A stretch of DNA of 64,000 bases from Escherichia coli (GTDB lineage: Bacteria; Pseudomonadota; Gammaproteobacteria; Enterobacterales; Enterobacteriaceae), in the NCBI RefSeq assembly GCF_036507355.1, contig NZ_AP027877.1. One strand, written 5' to 3'. The notes under the pieces were generated by a model that did no database searches, was not told where the DNA came from, and worked only from the letters and a program-made list of their open reading frames with translations. Position 1 is the stretch's first letter. The number at the start of each line of letters is the position of its first letter. Positions 5,932 through 50,041 of the stretch are shown here, piece after piece. The position numbers and the translations under genes were made by a program.

Positions 5932-6357
5932 TCACTCCACCAGCAATAATTTATAAAGCGGTTGATTCTCTTCAACCAAATCGGCAAGCGTGTAGTTATC
6001 CAGTTCCGTAAGAAAACTTTGCACGGCCTTAGAAAGCGCCTGTTTCAACCGACAGGCAGGTGTAATGTGGCAAAACTCACTGCTGCAATTCACCAGCGAT
6101 AAGGGCTCCAGCTCGCGCACCACATCACCAATACGTATCGCACTCGCCGGTTTACCCAGGCGAATGCCGCCATTTTTTCCACGAACAGCAGTCACGTAGC
6201 CGGCACGACTAAGTTGATTGATTATTTTGACCATATGATTACGGGAGACGCCGTAGACGTCAGTCACTTCAGAAATACTGGTCATCCGCCCTTCTGGCAA
6301 TGACGCCATGTAGATCAGCGCACGTAATCCGTAATCAGTGAAACTCGTTAACTGCAC
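5932..6357 (-). CDS. nsrR: Nitric-oxide-sensing transcriptional repressor NsrR (Rrf2 family)
   Basis: 141-aa [22 protein letters not shown]...; GTG start at 6357. Confidence 0.93.
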
Positions 6358-10594: not shown

Positions 10595-11875
10595 TTAGAT
10601 CAGGTAATCGATCAACGCCGGTTCTTGTTTACAGAGGCGACGCCAGTCAACGATCGGCATACGAACTTGCAGACTTACGCTGCCGTCCTCCTCCATCCAC
10701 TCTTTTTCTATTGCCTGAAGCTGATAAAAACGACTTCTCAGACGCCCTTCCTGCGGTGGTAGACGCAATGTATGCTGCGCCACCTCGCCGGAAAGCCGCT
10801 CCGTCAAAGCCTGAAAAAGCTGTGGTATCCCCGCTCCGGTCTGTGCGGAAAGCCAGACACGGATCGGTTTGTTCTCTTCGTCCCGATCAATACGCGGTTC
10901 GAAATCTTCCAGCATATCGATCTTGTTCATCACCAGCAGGGTTGGGATCTCGTGAGCGTCGATCTCTTCAAGAACCGTATTCACCGCTTCGATGTTTTCT
11001 TGTACACGCACATCCGCCGCATCAATGACGTGCAGCAGTAATGTGGCTTGCCGCGTCTCTTGTAACGTGGCTTTAAATGCTGCAACCAGATCGTGCGGCA
11101 GGTGGCGAATAAACCCTACGGTATCTGCCAACACGGTTTCACCGACATCTGCAACGTCAATACGCCGCAACGTCGGGTCGAGGGTGGCAAACAACTGGTC
11201 TGCCGCGTAGACCCGCGCTTCGGTGATGCGATTGAAAAGGGTAGATTTACCGGCGTTGGTATATCCCACCAGCGAAACAGTAGGAACGTCGGCTTTGATA
11301 CGCGATTGCCGCCCCTGCTCACGCTGCTTTTCAACTCTTTCCAGGCGCGACTGTATCTGCACGATGCGATTACGCAACAAACGACGGTCGGTTTCGAGCT
11401 GGGTTTCACCCGGACCACGCAAACCTATCCCGCCTTTCTGTCTTTCAAGGTGGGTCCAGCCACGCACCAGGCGCGTAGCCAGATGGCGCAGCTGCGCCAG
11501 CTCAACCTGCAACTTACCCTCATGGGTACGCGCACGTTGGGCGAAAATATCTAAAATAAGGCCGGTGCGGTCGATAACACGACACTCGCACAAACGCTCC
11601 AGGTTACGCTCTTGCGCCGGGCTCAGGGCATGGTCAAAAAGAACGACCGAAGCACCCGTCGCTTTGACAGCTTCCGCAATTTCAACTGCTTTACCTTCAC
11701 CTACAAAATACTTTGGGTGCGGCGCTTTACGGCTACCGGTAATCACCTGCAATGCTTCGACACCGGCGGAAGAGACCAGAGATTCAAACTCCTGGAGGTC
11801 TTCCATATCTTTGTCTTGCGTAAAATAGATGTGTACCAGTACCGCCTGCTCACCAGCATCATAACGGTCAAACAA
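10595..11875 (-). CDS. hflX: Ribosome-associated GTPase HflX
   Basis: 426-aa [21 protein letters not shown]... with [10 protein letters not shown]-loop; first codon is TTG, with an in-frame stop 5 codons upstream. Confidence 0.92.
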
Positions 11876-11951
11876 GCGTATAACCCTCTAAATAGATCAG
11901 CGGGGAACGCAGGATCGCTGGCTCCCCGTGTAAAAAAAACAGCCCGAAACC

Positions 11952-21038: not shown

Positions 21039-22091
21039 TTGAGTAAAAATAAACTCTCCAAAGGCCAGCAGCGCCGCGTGAACGCCAATCACCAGCGTCG
21101 TCTTAAAACGTCTAAGGAGAAGCCCGACTACGACGACAATCTGTTTGGCGAGCCTGATGAAGGTATCGTCATCAGCCGCTTTGGTATGCACGCTGATGTG
21201 GAATCCGCCGATGGCGACGTTCACCGCTGCAATATTCGCCGTACCATCCGTTCGCTGGTGACCGGCGACCGCGTAGTCTGGCGTCCGGGTAAACCGGCGG
21301 CGGAAGGCGTAAATGTCAAAGGGATCGTGGAAGCGGTGCATGAGCGCACCTCGGTGTTGACGCGTCCGGATTTCTACGACGGCGTGAAACCTATTGCCGC
21401 CAACATCGACCAGATTGTCATTGTCTCCGCCATTTTGCCGGAGCTGTCGCTCAATATTATCGACCGTTACCTGGTGGCCTGCGAAACCTTGCAGATTGAG
21501 CCGATTATTGTGCTCAATAAGATAGACCTGCTGGACGACGAAGGCATGGCGTTCGTCAACGAGCAGATGGATATCTACCGCAATATCGGTTATCGCGTAT
21601 TGATGGTTTCCAGCCATACTCAGGATGGGCTGAAACCGCTGGAAGAGGCGTTGACCGGGCGCATCAGCATTTTTGCCGGCCAGTCTGGCGTTGGTAAATC
21701 CAGCCTGCTGAACGCGTTGCTGGGGCTGCAAAAAGAGATCCTGACCAACGATGTCTCTGACAACTCGGGTCTCGGTCAGCACACCACGACCGCCGCACGA
21801 CTGTATCACTTCCCGCACGGCGGTGATGTGATTGATTCCCCTGGTGTGCGTGAGTTCGGCCTCTGGCACCTGGAGCCGGAACAAATCACTCAGGGTTTTG
21901 TCGAATTCCATGACTACTTAGGTCTGTGTAAATATCGCGATTGCAAACACGATACCGATCCGGGCTGCGCTATCCGGGAAGCGGTTGAGGAAGGAAAAAT
22001 CGCGGAAATCCGTTTCGAAAACTATCACCGTATTCTGGAAAGCATGGCGCAGGTAAAAACGCGTAAAAACTTTTCTGATACGGATGACTGA
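21039..22091 (+). CDS. rsgA: Small-ribosomal-subunit biogenesis GTPase RsgA
   Basis: Track ORF trimmed to the TTG at 21039 ([21 protein letters not shown]..., 350 aa); [10 protein letters not shown]-loop; start codon choice is from memory of the N-terminus. Confidence 0.88.
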
Positions 22092-22187: not shown

Positions 22188-23156
22188 TTGTTAAATTCAT
22201 TTAAACTTTCGCTACAGTACATTCTGCCGAAACTATGGCTTACTCGCCTGGCGGGTTGGGGCGCAAGCAAGCGGGCAGGATGGCTGACAAAACTGGTTAT
22301 CGATCTGTTCGTTAAATACTACAAGGTCGACATGAAAGAGGCGCAAAAGCCGGACACCGCCAGCTACCGCACCTTTAACGAATTCTTTGTCCGTCCGCTG
22401 CGTGACGAAGTACGCCCAATCGATACCGATCCGAATGTCCTGGTTATGCCTGCCGATGGCGTTATCAGCCAGTTGGGTAAAATCGAAGAAGATAAAATCC
22501 TGCAAGCCAAAGGCCACAACTACAGCCTCGAAGCCCTGCTGGCAGGCAACTATCTGATGGCGGACCTGTTCCGCAACGGTACGTTTGTGACCACTTACCT
22601 CTCCCCGCGTGACTACCACCGCGTACACATGCCGTGCAACGGTATTCTGCGTGAAATGATCTACGTGCCGGGCGATCTCTTCTCCGTTAACCATCTCACC
22701 GCTCAGAACGTGCCGAATCTGTTTGCCCGTAACGAACGCGTGATCTGCCTGTTCGATACCGAATTTGGCCCAATGGCGCAGATTCTGGTCGGGGCGACGA
22801 TTGTAGGCAGCATTGAGACGGTCTGGGCGGGCACCATTACGCCGCCGCGCGAAGGTATCATCAAGCGCTGGACCTGGCCTGCCGGGGAAAACGACGGTTC
22901 TGTGGCACTGCTGAAAGGCCAGGAAATGGGTCGCTTTAAACTCGGTTCCACCGTTATCAACCTGTTTGCACCGGGTAAAGTGAATCTGGTTGAGCAACTG
23001 GAAAGCCTGTCTGTCACGAAAATTGGCCAGCCGCTGGCAGTATCTACCGAAACCTTTGTTACGCCAGACGCTGAACCGGCCCCGCTTCCTGCTGAAGAGA
23101 TCGAAGCAGAACACGACGCCAGCCCATTGGTTGACGATAAAAAAGACCAGGTCTAA
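22188..23156 (+). CDS. psd: Phosphatidylserine decarboxylase proenzyme
   Basis: 322-aa [18 protein letters not shown]... with LGST self-cleavage motif; TTG start. Confidence 0.94.
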
Positions 23157-23177: not shown

Positions 23178-26100
23178 GTGCGCCTGATTATCACTTTTCT
23201 GATGGCCTGGTGCCTCAGTTGGGGGGCGTACGCCGCGACGGCCCCCGATAGCAAACAAATCACCCAGGAACTGGAGCAGGCAAAAGCGGCGAAACCCGCG
23301 CAGCCAGAAGTCATAGAGGCACTCCAGTCTGCCTTAAATGCGCTTGAGGAACGAAAAGGTTCCCTTGAGCGCATCAAGCAATATCAAGAAGTCATTGATA
23401 ATTATCCGAAACTCTCCGCTACTCTGCGCGCACAATTAAACAACATGCGTGACGAGCCGCGCAGCGTGTCGCCGGGGATGTCTACCGACGCGCTGAATCA
23501 GGAAATTCTCCAGGTCAGCAGTCAGTTGCTGGATAAAAGCCGTCAGGCCCAGCAAGAGCAGGAGCGCGCCCGCGAGATTGCCGATTCGCTGAATCAACTG
23601 CCGCAACAGCAAACCGACGCCCGCCGTCAGTTAAACGAGATCGAGCGCCGCCTGGGAACGCTTACCGGCAATACTCCGCTCAATCAGGCACAAAATTTCG
23701 CGTTGCAGTCTGACTCTGCACGTCTTAAGGCGCTCGTTGATGAACTGGAGCTGGCGCAGCTGTCTGCCAATAACCGCCAGGAATTAGCGCGCTTGCGCTC
23801 TGAGCTGGCTGAAAAAGAGAGCCAGCAACTGGATGCGTATTTGCAGGCCTTGCGTAATCAATTGAACAGCCAACGCCAGCTTGAGGCAGAGCGGGCGCTG
23901 GAAAGTACCGAATTACTAGCAGAAAACAGTGCCGATTTGCCGAAAGATATCGTCGCGCAATTCAAAATTAACCGCGAACTATCGGCGGCGCTGAATCAAC
24001 AGGCGCAGCGGATGGATCTCGTTGCCTCGCAACAGCGTCAGGCTGCCAGCCAGACGTTACAGGTCCGGCAGGCGTTGAATACGCTGCGTGAACAGTCGCA
24101 ATGGCTGGGATCGTCCAATCTGCTCGGTGAAGCGTTGCGGGCGCAGGTGGCACGGCTACCGGAAATGCCGAAACCACAACAGCTTGATACCGAAATGGCG
24201 CAGTTGCGTGTGCAACGGTTACGTTATGAGGATCTGCTTAATAAACAGCCGCTGCTACGGCAAATTCATCAGGCCGACGGTCAGCCGCTGACCGCTGAGC
24301 AAAACCGTATTCTGGAAGCACAGCTACGCACTCAGCGTGAGTTGCTGAACTCATTGTTGCAGGGTGGTGACACGCTACTGCTGGAACTGACCAAGCTGAA
24401 AGTCTCCAACGGGCAACTGGAAGATGCGCTGAAAGAAGTGAACGAAGCGACGCACCGCTATCTGTTCTGGACCTCTGACGTGCGCCCGATGACCATCGCC
24501 TGGCCGCTGGAAATCGCCCAGGATCTGCGTCGTCTCATTTCGCTGGACACCTTCAGTCAGTTGGGCAAAGCCAGTGTGATGATGCTGACCAGCAAAGAGA
24601 CGATTTTGCCGCTGTTTGGCGCGTTGATTCTGGTCGGTTGCAGTATTTACTCGCGCCGCTATTTCACCCGTTTTCTTGAACGTTCGGCGGCGAAAGTCGG
24701 CAAAGTGACTCAGGATCACTTCTGGCTGACGTTACGCACTCTTTTCTGGTCGATTCTCGTCGCGTCACCGCTGCCGGTGCTGTGGATGACGCTGGGTTAC
24801 GGCTTGCGCGAGGCGTGGCCTTATCCGCTGGCGGTCGCGATTGGCGATGGCGTAACGGCCACCGTGCCGCTGCTGTGGGTAGTGATGATTTGCGCTACTT
24901 TTGCCCGCCCGAACGGCTTGTTTATCGCTCATTTTGGCTGGCCGCGCGAACGTGTTTCTCGTGGGATGCGCTACTACCTGATGAGCATCGGGCTTATTGT
25001 GCCACTGATTATGGCGCTGATGATGTTCGATAATCTCGACGACCGCGAATTTTCCGGTTCGCTGGGACGGCTTTGCTTTATCCTCATTTGCGGTGCGCTG
25101 GCGGTGGTCACCCTCAGCCTGAAAAAGGCCGGGATCCCGCTGTATCTCAACAAAGAAGGCAGCGGCGACAATATTACCAACCATATGTTGTGGAACATGA
25201 TGATTGGCGCGCCACTGGTTGCCATTCTGGCGTCGGCGGTGGGTTATCTGGCAACGGCACAGGCGCTGTTAGCGAGGCTTGAAACCTCGGTTGCCATCTG
25301 GTTCCTGCTACTGGTGGTTTATCACGTTATCCGCCGCTGGATGCTGATCCAACGACGCAGGCTGGCGTTTGACCGGGCGAAGCATCGCCGGGCAGAGATG
25401 TTAGCGCAACGTGCGCGTGGCGAAGAGGAAGCACATCATCACAGTAGCCCGGAAGGGGCAATTGAAGTCGATGAAAGCGAAGTCGATCTCGATGCCATCA
25501 GTGCGCAATCCTTGCGGCTGGTGCGCTCAATTTTGATGTTGATCGCCCTGCTTTCGGTCATTGTGCTGTGGTCAGAAATCCATTCCGCTTTCGGCTTCCT
25601 CGAAAATATTTCGCTGTGGGATGTCACCTCCACGGTACAGGGCGTAGAAAGTCTGGAGCCGATAACCCTCGGTGCGGTGCTGATTGCCATTCTGGTGTTT
25701 ATCATCACCACGCAGCTGGTGCGCAACCTGCCCGCGCTGCTGGAACTGGCGATTTTGCAGCACCTGGATTTAACGCCGGGTACGGGTTACGCCATCACCA
25801 CCATCACCAAATATCTGCTGATGCTGATTGGCGGGCTGGTCGGCTTCTCAATGATTGGTATTGAGTGGTCGAAATTGCAGTGGCTGGTCGCCGCGCTCGG
25901 TGTTGGTCTCGGTTTTGGTTTGCAGGAAATTTTCGCCAACTTTATCTCTGGCCTGATCATCCTGTTCGAAAAACCGATTCGCATTGGCGATACGGTAACG
26001 ATCCGCGATCTTACTGGTAGTGTGACGAAAATTAACACCCGCGCCACCACCATCAGCGACTGGGACCGTAAAGAGATAATCGTGCCGAACAAGGCGTTTA

Positions 26101-26501
26101 TTACCGAGCAGTTTATTAACTGGTCGCTCTCTGACTCGGTTACGCGCGTGGTGTTGACGATTCCGGCCCCTGCCGATGCCAACAGTGAAGAAGTGACGGA
26201 AATCCTGCTCACCGCAGCGCGTCGCTGCTCGCTGGTGATCGACAACCCGGCACCGGAAGTCTTCCTGGTGGATCTGCAACAGGGGATTCAGATTTTCGAG
26301 CTGCGTATTTACGCCGCTGAGATGGGTCACCGTATGCCGCTACGCCATGAGATCCACCAGCTGATTCTGGCTGGCTTCCATGCTCACGGTATCGATATGC
26401 CATTCCCGCCCTTCCAGATGCGTCTGGAAAGCCTCAACGGTAAACAAACGGGGAGAACGCTGACGTCTGCGGGCAAAGGTCGTCAGGCGGGAAGTTTGTA
26501 A
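23178..26501 (+). CDS. mscM: Miniconductance mechanosensitive channel MscM (YjeP)
   Basis: 1107-aa ORF with signal peptide, long coiled-coil periplasmic region, multiple TM helices and a C-terminal MscS-like domain; GTG start. Confidence 0.92.
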   Translation: MRLIITFLMAWCLSWGAYAATAPDSKQITQELEQAKAAKPAQPEVIEALQSALNALEERKGSLERIKQYQEVIDNYPKLSATLRAQLNNMRDEPRSVSPGMSTDALNQEILQVSSQLLDKSRQAQQEQERAREIADSLNQLPQQQTDARRQLNEIERRLGTLTGNTPLNQAQNFALQSDSARLKALVDELELAQLSANNRQELARLRSELAEKESQQLDAYLQALRNQLNSQRQLEAERALESTELLAENSADLPKDIVAQFKINRELSAALNQQAQRMDLVASQQRQAASQTLQVRQALNTLREQSQWLGSSNLLGEALRAQVARLPEMPKPQQLDTEMAQLRVQRLRYEDLLNKQPLLRQIHQADGQPLTAEQNRILEAQLRTQRELLNSLLQGGDTLLLELTKLKVSNGQLEDALKEVNEATHRYLFWTSDVRPMTIAWPLEIAQDLRRLISLDTFSQLGKASVMMLTSKETILPLFGALILVGCSIYSRRYFTRFLERSAAKVGKVTQDHFWLTLRTLFWSILVASPLPVLWMTLGYGLREAWPYPLAVAIGDGVTATVPLLWVVMICATFARPNGLFIAHFGWPRERVSRGMRYYLMSIGLIVPLIMALMMFDNLDDREFSGSLGRLCFILICGALAVVTLSLKKAGIPLYLNKEGSGDNITNHMLWNMMIGAPLVAILASAVGYLATAQALLARLETSVAIWFLLLVVYHVIRRWMLIQRRRLAFDRAKHRRAEMLAQRARGEEEAHHHSSPEGAIEVDESEVDLDAISAQSLRLVRSILMLIALLSVIVLWSEIHSAFGFLENISLWDVTSTVQGVESLEPITLGAVLIAILVFIITTQLVRNLPALLELAILQHLDLTPGTGYAITTITKYLLMLIGGLVGFSMIGIEWSKLQWLVAALGVGLGFGLQEIFANFISGLIILFEKPIRIGDTVTIRDLTGSVTKINTRATTISDWDRKEIIVPNKAFITEQFINWSLSDSVTRVVLTIPAPADANSEEVTEILLTAARRCSLVIDNPAPEVFLVDLQQGIQIFELRIYAAEMGHRMPLRHEIHQLILAGFHAHGIDMPFPPFQMRLESLNGKQTGRTLTSAGKGRQAGSL

Positions 26502-26607
26502 TGCATGAAGCTGCCAAATGATGTCAACGTGGCTCATTTAGCAGCTTAACATCATCTTCAGTTATCACCAGCCCCGGAGAATATCATCCATACGCATTAC
26601 TTCCTGA

Positions 26608-26636
26608 CAACTCATCGCCGGAGAGACGATGAGTTG
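26608..26636. terminator. Perfect 10-bp stem hairpin between the convergent mscM and yjeM (possible bidirectional terminator)
   Basis: caactcatcg-ccggagaga-cgatgagttg; no clear U-tract on either side. Confidence 0.3.
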
Positions 26637-26651
26637 CAGGATTTCATAGGA

Positions 26652-28154
26652 TCAGTCGAGAGCCAGTTCAGGTTTGTTCGCCATGCGACTGCAATAGTTC
26701 TGGTAAATCGCCATCGCTAACAGCGAGAAGAAGACAGGGCCGCCAATCATCCACAATGTGCTGTCCCAGTCTCCGGCTTCAACCACAGGCTGAATAATGG
26801 TGAAGACGTTCGCAAATGTCACCACCAGAACGACAACCACCGTCGCAATCATTGCCGACATACGCGTTTTGAAAATCACAAATGGTCTGTCGAGATCCTG
26901 ACGTGCTTTAAAGAATGGGAAAGCCAGCGCGAGGAACAGGTAAGGAAGCGTCATAGACACGTTCGCCATCAGCGTCAGCTTGTTAAAGAACGCCGATGCG
27001 GTACCGCCACCAAACGAAACCAGCAGGATGAAAACAGTAACCAACCCGCACTGCATCCACATGGCGATAGACGGCATCCCCATCGCATTCAGGCGCGTCA
27101 TCGGTTCCGGCCACAACGCTTTCGGCGTCCCCTGGATGATGGCTTTCAGCGGTGAATAGCAAAGCGTAAAGAACGCACCGGTATAGGCGAGGAACATCGA
27201 AAGTCCGGTAATACGCGCAAACCATACGCCCAGCGACAATGACGCTTCAGGTGACAAATGCAGTGCGTTACCCAGCGTCACCCCGAGGCTCTTCATCAGC
27301 ACATAGGTAATATTGCCAAGGTTAACGGAACCATTACTTAATACCTGCTGCCAGTTTGTGCTGACGCCCCATAAAAATATTGCCAGCGAATAACCGATTG
27401 AAATAACAATAGCGGCAAAAACAATACCTTTGGCAAAGTTCTTTTCTGGATTTTCCGTTTTATCGACCAGACCACCAACCGCTTCAATTCCGCCATAGGC
27501 AAAAATAGCAAATACCACAAACGATAGCATTGCCAGACCGGACTGATAACCCGGGTTCGGTGATGCAAGGAAATTAATATCCTGCGCGAAATGCCCACCA
27601 TTTAATAACAAAATAGTAATGCTTACTAACAGCAATACTAAATTCAGACACATTACTGCAATACCGCCCACCGCAGTAATGCGGGCAATTTTATTAATCC
27701 CCTTAGAAGCAACGACGGTGACCAGAATCATCCATGCCACTGCCAGCAGACCAACCACCTGCGTAGGCTCCAGTCCGGCAATACGCCAGTGCTGGGTCAT
27801 GTCGCTACCATAGAGGAATGTTGAGAACGGTACCCAAACTTTCGCGGAGGTACTCACCATCCAGATGATATAAGAGGAAAACCACATAAACGTACCAATG
27901 AAGGCAAAACGTGGTCCGACACTATTATTCATCCAGGAATAGATACCACCTTCTTCTTTGCGATAAGCAGCTCCCATTTCAGCCATCATTAAGGCGAATG
28001 GAATAAAGAATAACAATGCAGAAAATATATAAAAGGGAATCGCACTATAACCCATTAAGTAATAAGCCGATGGGCTATTGGCAAATCCAAATACGGAAGT
28101 AAAGATCATCAATATGAGTCCTATCAGACTCATCTTTTTTATCGTGTGAGGCAT
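26652..28154 (-). CDS. yjeM: Inner-membrane APC-family transporter YjeM
   Basis: Track ORF trimmed to the ATG at 28154 (MPHTIKKMSLIGLILMIFTSVFG..., 500 aa); polytopic membrane protein. Confidence 0.88.
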   Translation of the reverse strand: MPHTIKKMSLIGLILMIFTSVFGFANSPSAYYLMGYSAIPFYIFSALLFFIPFALMMAEMGAAYRKEEGGIYSWMNNSVGPRFAFIGTFMWFSSYIIWMVSTSAKVWVPFSTFLYGSDMTQHWRIAGLEPTQVVGLLAVAWMILVTVVASKGINKIARITAVGGIAVMCLNLVLLLVSITILLLNGGHFAQDINFLASPNPGYQSGLAMLSFVVFAIFAYGGIEAVGGLVDKTENPEKNFAKGIVFAAIVISIGYSLAIFLWGVSTNWQQVLSNGSVNLGNITYVLMKSLGVTLGNALHLSPEASLSLGVWFARITGLSMFLAYTGAFFTLCYSPLKAIIQGTPKALWPEPMTRLNAMGMPSIAMWMQCGLVTVFILLVSFGGGTASAFFNKLTLMANVSMTLPYLFLALAFPFFKARQDLDRPFVIFKTRMSAMIATVVVVLVVTFANVFTIIQPVVEAGDWDSTLWMIGGPVFFSLLAMAIYQNYCSRMANKPELALD

Positions 28155-28372
28155 GAAACCATCCTTCATTTCAGCGCGTGTATAAAACGCGCCCACTGAA
28201 CTGCACTGCCCAACATTGAGCGGGCAGCGTAAAAACCAATACAGAATTGATACCTGGATGATATCAAATATCCAGTCTTAAATTGTGGCCTTTAACAGAA
28301 AAATGAAAACATATGCTACAGAATGGCGCTTATCACGCCATTCTTCGCTGTTAATTCAGTAATTTTTCAGAA

Positions 28373-29674: not shown

Positions 29675-31475
29675 GTGCAAACCTTTCAAGCCGATCTTGC
29701 CATTGTAGGCGCCGGTGGCGCGGGATTACGTGCTGCAATTGCTGCCGCGCAGGCAAATCCGAATGCAAAAATCGCACTAATCTCAAAAGTATACCCGATG
29801 CGTAGCCATACCGTTGCTGCAGAAGGGGGCTCCGCCGCTGTCGCGCAGGATCATGACAGCTTCGAATATCACTTTCACGATACAGTAGCGGGTGGCGACT
29901 GGTTGTGTGAGCAGGATGTCGTGGATTATTTCGTCCACCACTGCCCAACCGAAATGACCCAACTGGAACTGTGGGGATGCCCATGGAGCCGTCGCCCGGA
30001 TGGTAGCGTCAACGTACGTCGCTTCGGCGGCATGAAAATCGAGCGTACCTGGTTCGCCGCCGATAAGACCGGCTTCCATATGCTGCACACGCTGTTCCAG
30101 ACCTCTCTGCAATTCCCGCAGATCCAGCGTTTTGACGAACATTTCGTGCTGGATATTCTGGTTGATGATGGTCATGTTCGCGGCTTGGTAGCAATGAACA
30201 TGATGGAAGGCACGCTGGTGCAGATCCGTGCTAACGCGGTCGTTATGGCTACTGGCGGTGCGGGTCGCGTTTATCGTTACAACACCAACGGCGGCATCGT
30301 TACCGGTGACGGTATGGGTATGGCGCTAAGCCACGGCGTTCCGCTGCGTGACATGGAATTCGTTCAGTATCACCCAACCGGTCTGCCAGGTTCCGGTATC
30401 CTGATGACCGAAGGTTGCCGCGGTGAAGGCGGTATTCTGGTCAACAAAAATGGCTACCGTTATCTGCAAGATTACGGCATGGGCCCGGAAACTCCGCTGG
30501 GCGAGCCGAAAAACAAATATATGGAACTGGGTCCACGCGACAAAGTTTCTCAGGCCTTCTGGCACGAATGGCGTAAAGGCAACACCATCTCCACGCCGCG
30601 TGGTGATGTGGTTTATCTCGACCTGCGTCACCTCGGCGAGAAAAAACTGCATGAACGTCTGCCGTTCATCTGCGAACTGGCGAAAGCGTACGTTGGCGTC
30701 GATCCGGTTAAAGAACCGATTCCGGTACGTCCGACCGCACACTACACCATGGGCGGTATCGAAACCGATCAGAACTGTGAAACCCGCATTAAAGGTCTGT
30801 TCGCCGTGGGTGAATGTTCCTCTGTTGGTCTGCACGGTGCAAACCGTCTGGGCTCCAACTCCCTGGCGGAACTGGTGGTCTTCGGCCGTCTGGCCGGTGA
30901 ACAAGCGACAGAGCGTGCAGCAACTGCCGGTAATGGCAACGAAGCGGCAATTGAAGCGCAGGCAGCTGGCGTTGAACAACGTCTGAAAGATCTGGTTAAC
31001 CAGGATGGCGGCGAAAACTGGGCGAAGATCCGCGACGAAATGGGCCTGGCTATGGAAGAAGGCTGCGGTATCTACCGTACGCCGGAACTGATGCAGAAAA
31101 CCATCGACAAGCTGGCAGAGCTGCAGGAACGCTTCAAGCGCGTGCGCATCACCGACACTTCCAGCGTGTTCAACACCGACCTGCTCTACACCATTGAACT
31201 GGGCCACGGTCTGAACGTTGCTGAATGTATGGCGCACTCCGCAATGGCACGTAAAGAGTCCCGCGGCGCACACCAGCGTCTGGACGAAGGTTGCACCGAG
31301 CGTGACGACGTCAACTTCCTCAAACACACCCTCGCCTTCCGCGATGCTGATGGCACGACTCGCCTGGAGTACAGCGACGTGAAGATTACTACGCTACCGC
31401 CAGCTAAACGCGTTTACGGTGGCGAAGCGGATGCAGCCGATAAGGCGGAAGCAGCCAATAAGAAGGAGAAGGCGA

Positions 31476-31483
<8 letters not shown>
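29675..31483 (+). CDS. frdA: Fumarate reductase flavoprotein subunit
   Basis: 602-aa [24 protein letters not shown]... (FAD-binding GxGxxG); GTG start. Confidence 0.97.
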
Positions 31484-35118: not shown

Positions 35119-35298
35119 ATCAGGCTCCGGAGAATTGGGGCCGTCCCCGGTGAAAAGAGGCGTTTGCAGGTCGTCCTGCAAAGCTGATGGTTGAACGGAT
35201 ATTTTGCCAGGTGGCAGAGGAATTTCAACTATTACCTTTGTGACTATCGCAAAAAAACAAACGGCACGACACAGCTGTCGTACCGTTATTGCTTATTG

Positions 35299-37501: not shown

Positions 37502-37681
37502 AGAGCAACAAACGCAAGTACAGCAACCTGTCATTAAACTGGGAAATTTAATCTTTGCCCGTTGCATAACCTTTAATTATTCATATGCATTGCTGTTGTT
37601 ACTCTTTATATAACTAACACCAATAAGGTGATGCTGCCAACTTACTGATTTAGTGTATGATGGTGTTTTTGAGGTGCTCCA

Positions 37682-37957
37682 GTGGCTTCTGTTTCTATCA
37701 GCTGTCCCTCCTGTTCAGCTACTGACGGGGTGGTGCGTAACGGCAAAAGCACCGCCGGACATCAGCGCTATCTCTGCTCTCACTGCCGTAAAACATGGCA
37801 ACTGCAGTTCACTTACACCGCTTCTCAACCCGGTACGCACCAGAAAATCATTGATATGGCCATGAATGGCGTTGGATGCCGGGCAACAGCCCGCATTATG
37901 GGCATTGGCCTCAACACGATTTTACGTCACTTAAAAAACTCAGGCCGCAGTCGGTAA
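37682..37957 (+). CDS. insA: IS1 InsA (transposition inhibitor / N-terminal part of the InsAB' transposase)
   Basis: 91-aa [43 protein letters not shown]... (zinc finger plus HTH). Confidence 0.92.
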
Positions 37958-38379
37958 CCTCGCGCATACAGCCGGGCAGTGACGTCATCGTCTGCGCGGA
38001 AATGGACGAACAGTGGGGCTATGTCGGGGCTAAATCGCGCCAGCGCTGGCTGTTTTACGCGTATGACAGGCTCCGGAAGACGGTTGTTGCGCACGTATTC
38101 GGTGAACGCACGATGGCGACGCTGGGGCGTCTTATGAGCCTGCTGTCACCCTTTGACGTGGTGATATGGATGACGGATGGCTGGCCGCTGTATGAATCCC
38201 GCCTGAAGGGAAAGCTGCACGTAATCAGCAAGCGATATACGCAGCGAATTGAGCGGCATAACCTGAATCTGAGGCAGCACCTGGCACGGCTGGGACGGAA
38301 GTCGCTGTCGTTCTCAAAATCGGTGGAGCTGCATGACAAAGTCATCGGGCATTATCTGAACATAAAACACTATCAATAA
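37876..38379 (+). CDS. insB: IS1 InsB reading frame (expressed as InsAB' after a -1 frameshift)
   Basis: -1 frame relative to insA; [16 protein letters not shown]...DDE-type catalytic region, 167 aa. Confidence 0.9.
37933..37939 (+). other. IS1 programmed -1 ribosomal frameshift site (AAAAAAC)
   Basis: A6C heptamer in the insA/insB overlap. Confidence 0.6.
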
Positions 38380-38540
38380 GTTGGAGTCATTACCCACCAA
38401 TAATTAACCTTTCTTTTCTGTTTATATAGAGTGAGTACGGCTATTTATGTTATTTTAACAACTATTACTACCAAGCCCATTTATCTGGCTTATAAATTAA
38501 AATTAATTATTTAATTGAGAAATGGTTAGGGAGAACCTAC

Positions 38541-40093: not shown

Positions 40094-41761
<1,668 letters not shown>

Positions 41762-43633: not shown

Positions 43634-44110
43634 TTAATCCTGGCGATCGTCTTTATGATCAAGGCGGTCGCGGTCATCATCCTTTCGCTGGTACTCACCA
43701 TCAAAAGTATTACCGCCACCGGTCCCGGCGCTAAAACCGCCGCCTGGCATGCGAGAAAAGCGCAAATGTGGCATCAACTTCACTGTCAGATGCTTTTGCA
43801 CCGGCGGCAATAAAAGCAGAAGACCGAGGAAGTCGGTGAAAAAGCCCGGTAATAAAAGCAGCAAACCGGCAATGATCAGCGAAACACTTTTAATCATCTC
43901 CGCCGCAGGGTTTTCACCCGCCGCCATTTTTTGCTGCATCAGCACGAAATTCTTAAAGCCCTGGTTACGTACCAGTGACATACCGATAACTGACGTGAAT
44001 ATAACCAGCACGAGGGTCAGCAATACCCCCAATACATGGGCAACCTGAATAAAGATTGAAATCTCAATATAGACATAAAGGAAAATGGCAATAAAAGGTA
44101 ACCAGCGCAA
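43634..44110 (-). CDS. fxsA: Inner-membrane protein FxsA
   Basis: 158-aa ORF MRWLPFIAIFLYVYIEISIFIQVAHV... with charged C-terminal tail; TTG start. Confidence 0.87.
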   Translation of the reverse strand: MRWLPFIAIFLYVYIEISIFIQVAHVLGVLLTLVLVIFTSVIGMSLVRNQGFKNFVLMQQKMAAGENPAAEMIKSVSLIIAGLLLLLPGFFTDFLGLLLLLPPVQKHLTVKLMPHLRFSRMPGGGFSAGTGGGNTFDGEYQRKDDDRDRLDHKDDRQD

Positions 44111-49465: not shown

Positions 49466-50041
49466 GTGCAACGTGAAGATGTACTGGGAGAAGCCCTGAA
49501 ATTATTAGAATTACAAGGGATTGCCAACACCACGCTGGAGATGGTTGCTGAACGTGTGGATTATCCACTGGACGAGCTGCGCCGCTTCTGGCCAGACAAA
49601 GAGGCAATACTCTACGATGCGCTGCGTTATCTTAGCCAACAGATAGATGTCTGGCGTCGTCAGCTGATGCTGGACGAAACGCAAACCGCCGAACAAAAGC
49701 TGCTGGCACGTTATCAGGCGTTATCGGAGTGCGTTAAAAACAACCGCTATCCGGGCTGTCTATTTATCGCTGCCTGTACGTTTTATCCCGATCCTGGCCA
49801 CCCTATTCATCAACTGGCCGATCAGCAAAAAAGCGCGGCCTACGATTTCACCCACGAACTGTTAACCACGCTGGAAGTTGACGATCCAGCGATGGTAGCA
49901 AAGCAGATGGAACTGGTGCTGGAAGGCTGTTTAAGCCGAATGCTGGTGAATCGTAGCCAGGCGGATGTCGACACCGCACATCGGCTGGCGGAAGATATCC
50001 TGCGCTTCGCCCGCTGCCGCCAGGGTGGTGCACTGACCTGA
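49466..50041 (+). CDS. yjdC: TetR-family HTH transcriptional regulator YjdC
   Basis: GTG at 49466 ([31 protein letters not shown]..., 191 aa); an upstream GTG at 49442 is an alternative start. Confidence 0.8.

Follow-up and report, generated by a model that had tools for sequence, protein, structure and literature searches.

Nine GTG and TTG start codons in a 64-kb stretch of the Escherichia coli chromosome, and the conservation of UUG at the start of hflX

We judge it highly probable (about 0.93) that nine GTG and TTG codons at the heads of genes in a 64,000-nucleotide stretch of Escherichia coli DNA (hereafter, the window) are genuine, ordinary bacterial non-AUG initiation codons, and that the UUG-UUU of hflX is additionally under strong purifying selection. 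All nine starts are already in the reference annotation, and as a finding they are already known. The deep conservation of the hflX UUG, for which we found no description in the searchable literature (a scope that takes in a minority of the subscription journals), is a small but real addition.

Non-ATG starts across the window

The window is a piece of E. coli chromosome running from yjfL to dcuR, in the orientation reverse to that of MG1655 at 4.35-4.41 Mb. A 3-kb piece around the hflX start (hflK, hflX, hfq, miaA) is found, at 95-99.9% identity, in 5,425 of the 5,426 complete genomes of E. coli. MG1655 has 59 coding sequences with a counterpart in the window, and all of them were mapped; yjeN and yjeO of MG1655 are missing, and an IS1 element sits between epmB and yjeJ, where MG1655 carries none.

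An earlier note, made from the letters of the sequence, had claimed TTG starts for hflX, rsgA, psd and fxsA and GTG starts for frdA, mscM, nsrR, yjdC and insA. The four TTG starts and the GTG starts of frdA, mscM, nsrR and yjdC all match both the curated MG1655 annotation and PGAP, and the insA start is the very GTG at which PGAP begins the IS1 transposase in strain ET745 (Table 1). The list also proved complete: the other 51 mapped chromosomal genes all start at ATG, as they do in MG1655, and no further annotated gene with a non-ATG start was found among the genes mapped in the window.

Table 1. Positions of the nine non-ATG starts and associated features in the window (SD, Shine-Dalgarno sequence)
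Feature	Position	Strand	CDS or ORF	Product length	SD	Spacer (nt)	SD duplex (kcal/mol)	Remarks
nsrR GTG start	6355..6357	-	CDS 5932-6357	141 aa	GAGG	5
hflX TTG start	11873..11875	-	CDS 10595-11875	426 aa	GAGGG	8	-6.3
hflX Shine-Dalgarno GAGGG	11888-11884	-						Overlaps TAG stop; feature 11884..11890
rsgA TTG start	21039..21041	+	CDS 21039-22091	350 aa	AGGAG	9
psd TTG start	22188..22190	+	CDS 22188-23156	322 aa	GGAGG	5	-9.3
mscM GTG start	23178..23180	+	CDS 23178-26501	1107 aa	AAGGA	9		Stop at -8
frdA GTG start	29675..29677	+	CDS 29675-31483	602 aa	GGAGG	6	-9.3
IS1	37627-38394							768 bp, terminal inverted repeats
IS1 insA GTG start	37682..37684	+	ORF 37682-37957	91 aa	GAGG	7		Stop at -4
fxsA TTG start	44108..44110	-	CDS 43634-44110	158 aa	AGGAG	6
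yjdC (dicD) GTG start	49466..49468	+	CDS 49466-50041	191 aa	GGAGG	8	-9.5

Shine-Dalgarno (SD) spacing, which the earlier note had named as a way to examine each candidate, speaks for all nine starts: every one has an SD 5-9 nt upstream, with duplex energies of -5.6 to -9.5 kcal/mol. The 3,901 TTG and GTG triplets of the window average -2.3 kcal/mol, and only 7% of them reach -6 or below; SD energies so far beyond this background argue that the nine starts are not chance triplets. Upstream, no in-frame start with an SD was found before the preceding stop in any of the nine genes, the only two candidates (in rsgA and yjdC) being SD-less. The first downstream ATGs, at residues 9-59, have a weak SD or none and lie within conserved sequence.

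In each of these mRNAs, the SD would set the 30S subunit over the GUG or UUG. The initiator fMet-tRNA reads a GUG or UUG start as methionine, and the proteins would then begin with Met at the N-termini recognized in the earlier note. Initiation at GUG or UUG is several-fold less efficient than at AUG, so that these codons would act as fixed attenuators of translation—an attenuation that strong SD sequences may partly offset. The median SD energy was -6.9 kcal/mol for the nine non-ATG genes versus -6.1 kcal/mol for the 51 ATG genes (one-sided Mann-Whitney P = 0.024), and such stronger SDs at non-ATG genes are the compensation pattern of Belinky et al. (PMC5622118).

The frequency of these starts is unexceptional. 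Non-ATG codons open eight of the 59 chromosomal genes (13.6%), compared with about 10.7 expected (P for eight or more = 0.87); published shares are about 18% in well-annotated bacterial genomes and 17% in E. coli, where GUG starts about 14% and UUG about 3% of genes. For TTG, the four observed starts stand against 2.6 expected at a frequency of 4.35% (P = 0.26), or against about 1.8 at the E. coli value of 3% (P of about 0.10 by Poisson arithmetic). Among the 59 genes of the window, no enrichment of either non-ATG or TTG starts was found.

That a gene finder restricted to ATG would mis-call these starts, as the earlier note had warned, is illustrated in public databases by Psd and by the RsgA of Yokenella. 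Public protein sets contain Psd cut back to Met49 (P0303, P0329) as well as Psd lengthened to upstream ATGs (P0274, P0286, P0292, P0316), and Yokenella rsgA has been called from an upstream TTG, which makes it 12 codons too long. In the window, roughly every seventh gene would be given a wrong start by ATG-only or longest-ORF calling; the earlier reader had recovered the start codons correctly from raw sequence.

Evidence for the individual N-termini

For hflX, nsrR, rsgA, psd and mscM, cross-species DNA comparison places the start at the 5′ limit of conserved coding sequence; for frdA, fxsA, yjdC and insA, the same criterion was applied through domain or full-length family models, which reach residues 1-8. 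NCBIfam full-length equivalog models align from residue 1 of HflX, RsgA, FrdA, MscM, NsrR and YjdC, with PGAP and these models having been trained on the same annotated N-termini. PDB constructs, designed from annotation, likewise corroborate the N-termini rather than giving independent proof of the native start. Pfam boundaries are decisive for frdA, nsrR, fxsA and insA and not for hflX, psd, rsgA and mscM. The supplements of the TRAINSPOTTER N-terminomics and tetracycline-inhibited profiling (TetRP) papers hold no entry for hflX, rsgA, psd, fxsA, frdA or nsrR.

Where domain boundaries decide, the first ATG would in each case truncate a folded unit. The Rrf2 domain of NsrR begins at residue 3, and a start at the first ATG (residue 17) would cut the winged helix; upstream of the GTG, the frame is free of start codons back to the stop at -26. 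Among the 80 genomes collected for hflX (see below), the same nsrR codon is GTG in 26 species and ATG in four, and the Rrf2 regulators RirA, IscR and CymR align 1 to 1 with NsrR. In FrdA, FAD_binding_2 extends from residue 7, and initiation at the first ATG (residue 42) would break into the Rossmann fold; PDB 1KF6 contains FrdA in its 602-aa form, and alignments with SdhA homologs begin at residues 5-7. The FxsA domain begins at residue 8, so placed that an ATG start at residue 44 would cut the first membrane segment, and no in-frame start precedes the TTG before the stop at -23. InsA residues 1-36 match positions 1-35 of the Zn_ribbon_InsA profile and residues 43-88 are covered by HTH_Tnp_IS1; starting at the first ATG, residue 59, would cut the zinc ribbon.

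The insA GTG lies 56 nt from the left end of IS1, in an element whose transposase PGAP annotates as frameshifted. This IS1 shares the insA/insAB′ organization of known IS1 and differs from the situation in MG1655 by its insertion site alone. Read from the printed sequence, a 9-bp target-site duplication, CACCAATAA, flanks it at 37618-37626 and 38395-38403.

YjdC has no Pfam match at 1e-3, and NCBIfam and PDB were used instead: NF047866 and YjdC align 1-191 to 1-191, and the TetR structure 3G7R aligns from YjdC residue 3. The upstream GTG at -8 is devoid of an SD (+0.3 kcal/mol).

The cluster of rsgA, psd and mscM was resolved by comparison between genera. The codon homologous to the rsgA start is TTG in nine species and GTG in six, while Vibrio, Photobacterium and Shewanella have GTG or ATG one codon over; a 13-residue N-terminal RsgA peptide is conserved throughout the species compared. 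The RsgA of PDB 2YKR has 350 aa, the upstream TTG at -11 lacks an SD (+0.1 kcal/mol), and the Pfam domain begins at residue 100, downstream of the first ATG at 50. In Enterobacter and Yokenella psd begins with TTG, in Erwinia with GTG, and the same GGAGG stands in front. Psd residues 2-48 are conserved in 120 homologs, and the beta chain in PDB 7CNW covers residues 1-253; the first ATG is codon 49 and the Pfam domain starts at residue 63. For mscM, Enterobacter and Yokenella have GTG and Erwinia ATG. NCBIfam NF008180 spans MscM from end to end (1-1107 to 1-1109), the Pfam domain begins at residue 31 and the first ATG is codon 9—a position at which the Erwinia residue matching E. coli MscM Met9 is Leu.

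For hflX, the earlier note had argued from an in-frame stop five codons upstream and from the absence of any ATG before residue 24 that TTG is forced if the protein begins MFDRYD, and each element of this argument holds. On the minus strand, the frame reads TAG (11890-11888), then AGG GTT ATA CGC, then the start codon TTG and TTT GAC CGT TAT GAT; no ATG, GTG or TTG lies in frame between the stop and the TTG, and ATG does not occur in frame until codon 24. The upstream stop thus forces the TTG, and the MFDRYD N-terminus is backed by residues 1-23, which are conserved as protein in 79 species with an Arg4 codon that may be CGT, AGG, AGA or CGA. Positions -15 to -9 are conserved in other species as UAAGGAG or UGAGAGG, often extending the SD, and the same bases create the in-frame stop at -5. 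PDB 5ADY contains HflX in its 426-aa form, with MFDRYD at the N-terminus; NCBIfam NF008280 spans HflX from end to end (1-426 to 1-426); and alignments with the HflX structures from mycobacteria and Listeria begin at residues 11 and 19. The Pfam domain begins at residue 25, adjoining the ATG at 24.

Could some of these genes nevertheless start at the first downstream ATG, with the upstream TTG or GTG and the intervening residues left untranslated and the accepted N-termini a habit of annotation? The Pfam boundaries of hflX, psd, rsgA and mscM would be compatible with it, and TIGR00163 (Psd) begins exactly at residue 49, where P0303 and P0329 are called. Yet in other genera the protein sequence ahead of the downstream ATG is conserved while its codons vary synonymously; only 15 of 78 species have ATG at codon 24 of hflX, and in others ATG can first appear as late as codon 365; MscM Met9 gives way to Leu in Erwinia; the downstream ATGs lack an SD (+0.6 to -5.2 kcal/mol); and the mycobacterial and Listeria HflX structures align upstream of Met24. 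Set against this evidence, downstream initiation is scarcely credible. We also consider it unlikely that at least one of the nine genes has dual initiation, in which the non-ATG codon would be the main start and an internal in-frame start would give a shorter isoform. Internal starts are reported to be widespread in E. coli by a retapamulin profiling study (10.1101/520783), and SD-like matches do precede internal TTG30 and GTG34 of fxsA (strong, at -9.7 kcal/mol) and GTG18 of insA (-6.3 kcal/mol). However, the fxsA match consists of GGGGG from a run of Gly-Val codons within the conserved membrane domain, where an internal start would remove the first transmembrane segment, and GTG17 and GTG18 of insA fall after the CxxC of the zinc ribbon. 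Initiation at the nine GTG and TTG codons therefore remains our preferred reading.

Conservation of UUG at the hflX start

Eighty genomes carrying hflX were collected through peptide patterns far from the N-terminus, so that the set is not biased toward TTG. In the 79 that can be aligned as far as residue 1, the homologous start is TTG without exception, at 63-100% protein identity and across Enterobacterales, Vibrionales, Alteromonadales, Aeromonadales and Orbales; in this genome set, only Haemophilus differs in the HflX N-terminus. Metagenome contigs were scanned with a degenerate pattern for hflX codons 2-15 only, leaving the start codon unspecified. Among the 104 unique sequences recovered, the homologous codon is TTG in 99 and GTG in one, and in the other four the sole possible start short of the upstream stop is a TTG one or two codons further up, for a total of 103 of 104 with TTG. 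Farther out, eight distant representatives (42-63% identity) comprise six with TTG, one with GTG and one with ATG, and most of the eight lie directly downstream of hfq. A word-index protein search for HflX reached close relatives only (at least 86% identity), whereas the representative search and the contig look-ups went further. In several further HflX representatives the database entry literally gives Leu as the first residue.

This constancy contrasts with the rest of the gene. In 78 unique full-length hflX sequences, leaving aside Met and Trp, the amino acid is the same throughout in 133 columns, and the codon is invariant in one of them, the TTT of Phe2. The median frequency of the major codon is 0.50, and at Phe18 TTT and TTC are used 37:37. 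With TTG and the Phe2 TTT invariant and other synonymous sites saturated, TTG-TTT-GA is held at the nucleotide level, which implies selection for UUG itself at the hflX start. Conservation beyond synonymous saturation is found for hflX and not for rsgA, psd, mscM or nsrR. In general, UUG starts are replaced by AUG or GUG more quickly than matched non-coding triplets change, and about 3% of them switch even among close genomes (PMC5622118); hflX runs opposite to this trend, keeping its UUG across several orders. The exceptions that we examined, ATG in P0159 and GTG in L178, have a visibly weaker SD (AGGT); these two cases fit compensation, or stabilizing selection on initiation rate.

Two other accounts of the TTG starts were weighed. 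The window might be unusually rich in TTG through a regional or functional bias, for example if ribosome-associated GTPases shared weak starts: three of the four TTG starts, where 1.8-2.6 would be expected, fall within 11 kb, and both hflX and rsgA encode ribosome-binding GTPases. But the TTG excess is not significant at either P value given above, the non-ATG total is slightly below expectation, and the TTG of rsgA and psd, unlike that of hflX, is not kept outside Enterobacteriaceae (GTG in Erwiniaceae), which makes such a bias very improbable. We regard it as quite improbable, too, that the constancy of TTG in hflX is an artefact of sampling, or that it stems from an overlapping RNA element at UUGUUUGA rather than from selection on initiation. 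The genomes do share phylogenetic ties, an invariant 8-mer at the hflX start, TTGTTTGA, could mark a motif with another role, and RNAalifold draws a weak hairpin that includes TTGTTTGA. Against this, both hflX searches left the start codon unspecified; synonymous sites are saturated across the 78 full-length sequences described above, where none of the 132 other invariant-residue codons is invariant; and nsrR and rsgA switch their start codon in the same loci. The hairpin itself amounts to -2.7 kcal/mol with no compensatory pair, the mean MFE z-score is -0.9, and no Rfam family was found at the hflX start. Purifying selection on UUG-UUU as part of an initiation site thus remains the reading that we favor for hflX.

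What the hflX UUG may be for

The TTG of E. coli hflX has been remarked upon before, with a 7-8-fold lower efficiency than ATG, in a study that describes the HflX level as tightly controlled and an excess as not beneficial under chloramphenicol stress (bioRxiv 10.1101/2022.11.25.517942). Hfq is abundant and is encoded upstream on the same transcripts; a weak UUG would keep HflX synthesis low and in a fixed relation to it. Low HflX expression downstream of hfq is, we infer, the likeliest purpose of the conserved UUG. On its own, expression level gives no obvious reason why an equivalent such as AUG combined with a weak SD has almost never replaced it.

A more speculative idea, which we entertain while thinking it doubtful, is that the invariant UUG-UUU-GA behind a strong, extended SD is an ancient regulatory device, in which initiation would sense the state of the translation apparatus and so tie HflX synthesis to the condition that HflX corrects. 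Candidate inputs would include free ribosomal subunits, initiation factors, initiator tRNA and heat or antibiotic stress. If true, a regulatory UUG would explain why replacement by AUG or GUG is rare across Gammaproteobacteria and beyond.

Some specific devices were considered and set aside. On the folding values given above we rejected an RNA thermometer or other conserved structure around the start of hflX, and nothing supported the out-of-frame second UUG in UUGUUUG as a competing start. Autoregulation of infC is a matter of IF3 discriminating against AUU, a mechanism that probably does not carry over to the UUG of hflX. According to work attributed to Sussman et al. in 1996, IF3 reportedly handles UUG like the other canonical codons of class I, and since UUG would then be canonical toward IF3, IF3-based autoregulation of the infC type is unlikely for hflX.

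Placed beside known systems, eight of the nine starts are identical in kind to canonical GUG and UUG starts, and hflX differs only in how long its TTG has been retained. The switching of rsgA, psd, mscM and nsrR among TTG, GTG and ATG between genera is likewise the turnover described by Belinky, Rogozin and Koonin in 2017 (PMC5622118). Functionally maintained non-AUG starts include the AUU codons of infC and pcnB, and a paper on the lac operon reports non-canonical start codons there (PMC11445065). By plausible analogy with infC, pcnB and lac, hflX may have a sub-optimal start that selection keeps in order to set or regulate the protein level.

For the fields of translation control and ribosome rescue the interest is modest: hflX would offer an uncluttered example from nature of selection holding a sub-optimal start codon in place over a very long evolutionary time.

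Conservation of the hflX start codon

The TTG start of hflX (window 11873–11875, − strand) and its next codon, TTT, are unchanged over several gammaproteobacterial orders (comparison loci L005–L213). All 79 genomes start hflX with TTG, as do 103 of the 104 unique metagenome sequences; among eight distant representatives, six use it. Synonymous sites in the rest of hflX are saturated, and the neighboring non-ATG genes (rsgA, psd, mscM, and nsrR) switch start codon.

Start mis-calls and naming of Psd and RsgA

Start mis-calling at non-ATG genes is found in concrete cases. Psd entries in public protein collections are either cut to Met49 (P0303, P0329)—the exact beginning of the TIGR00163 model, not the true N-terminus—or lengthened to upstream ATGs (P0274, P0286, P0292, P0316), and RsgA of Yokenella (locus L215, 1293–2381) is annotated 12 codons too long, from an upstream TTG. 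As to naming, the protein encoded at window 22188–23156 (+) is called 'archaetidylserine decarboxylase' by PGAP, with the gene symbol asd, while its MG1655 name is psd, phosphatidylserine decarboxylase.

Differences from K-12 and a known riboswitch

Several loci depart from K-12. A 2-bp deletion close to the 3′ end of yjfK shifts the frame, such that YjfK continues via the spacer into the yjfL frame; the product, as predicted from sequence, would be a YjfK–YjfL fusion. Near its 3′ end, yjfL also carries a 1-bp insertion that alters the C-terminus. The fused ORF may be genuine or may reflect a sequencing error; in K-12 and strain 165, yjfK and yjfL are distinct genes.

The IS1 copy is flanked by a 9-bp target duplication (CACCAATAA); in MG1655 this site has no IS1, and some other strains harbor one there or nearby. 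Between mscM and yjeM (window 26501–26700), we found no counterparts of MG1655 yjeN and yjeO, and the final 10 residues of YjeM (26652–28196, −) are unlike those of K-12. Finally, groL contains 9 nt more than in K-12, its C-terminal tail comprising five GGM repeats as opposed to four.

Features of the window
Feature	Coordinates	Strand	Description
yjfK–yjfL ORF	132–1244	−	single 370-aa ORF in place of separate yjfK and yjfL
Guanidine-II (mini-ykkC) riboswitch	35136–35182	−	upstream of gdx (sugE); Rfam 50.4 bits
IS1	37627–38394		768 bp, between epmB and yjeJ
groL	40094–41749	−	551 aa

The Guanidine-II riboswitch, scored against an Rfam threshold of 32, is a known element at its expected position.
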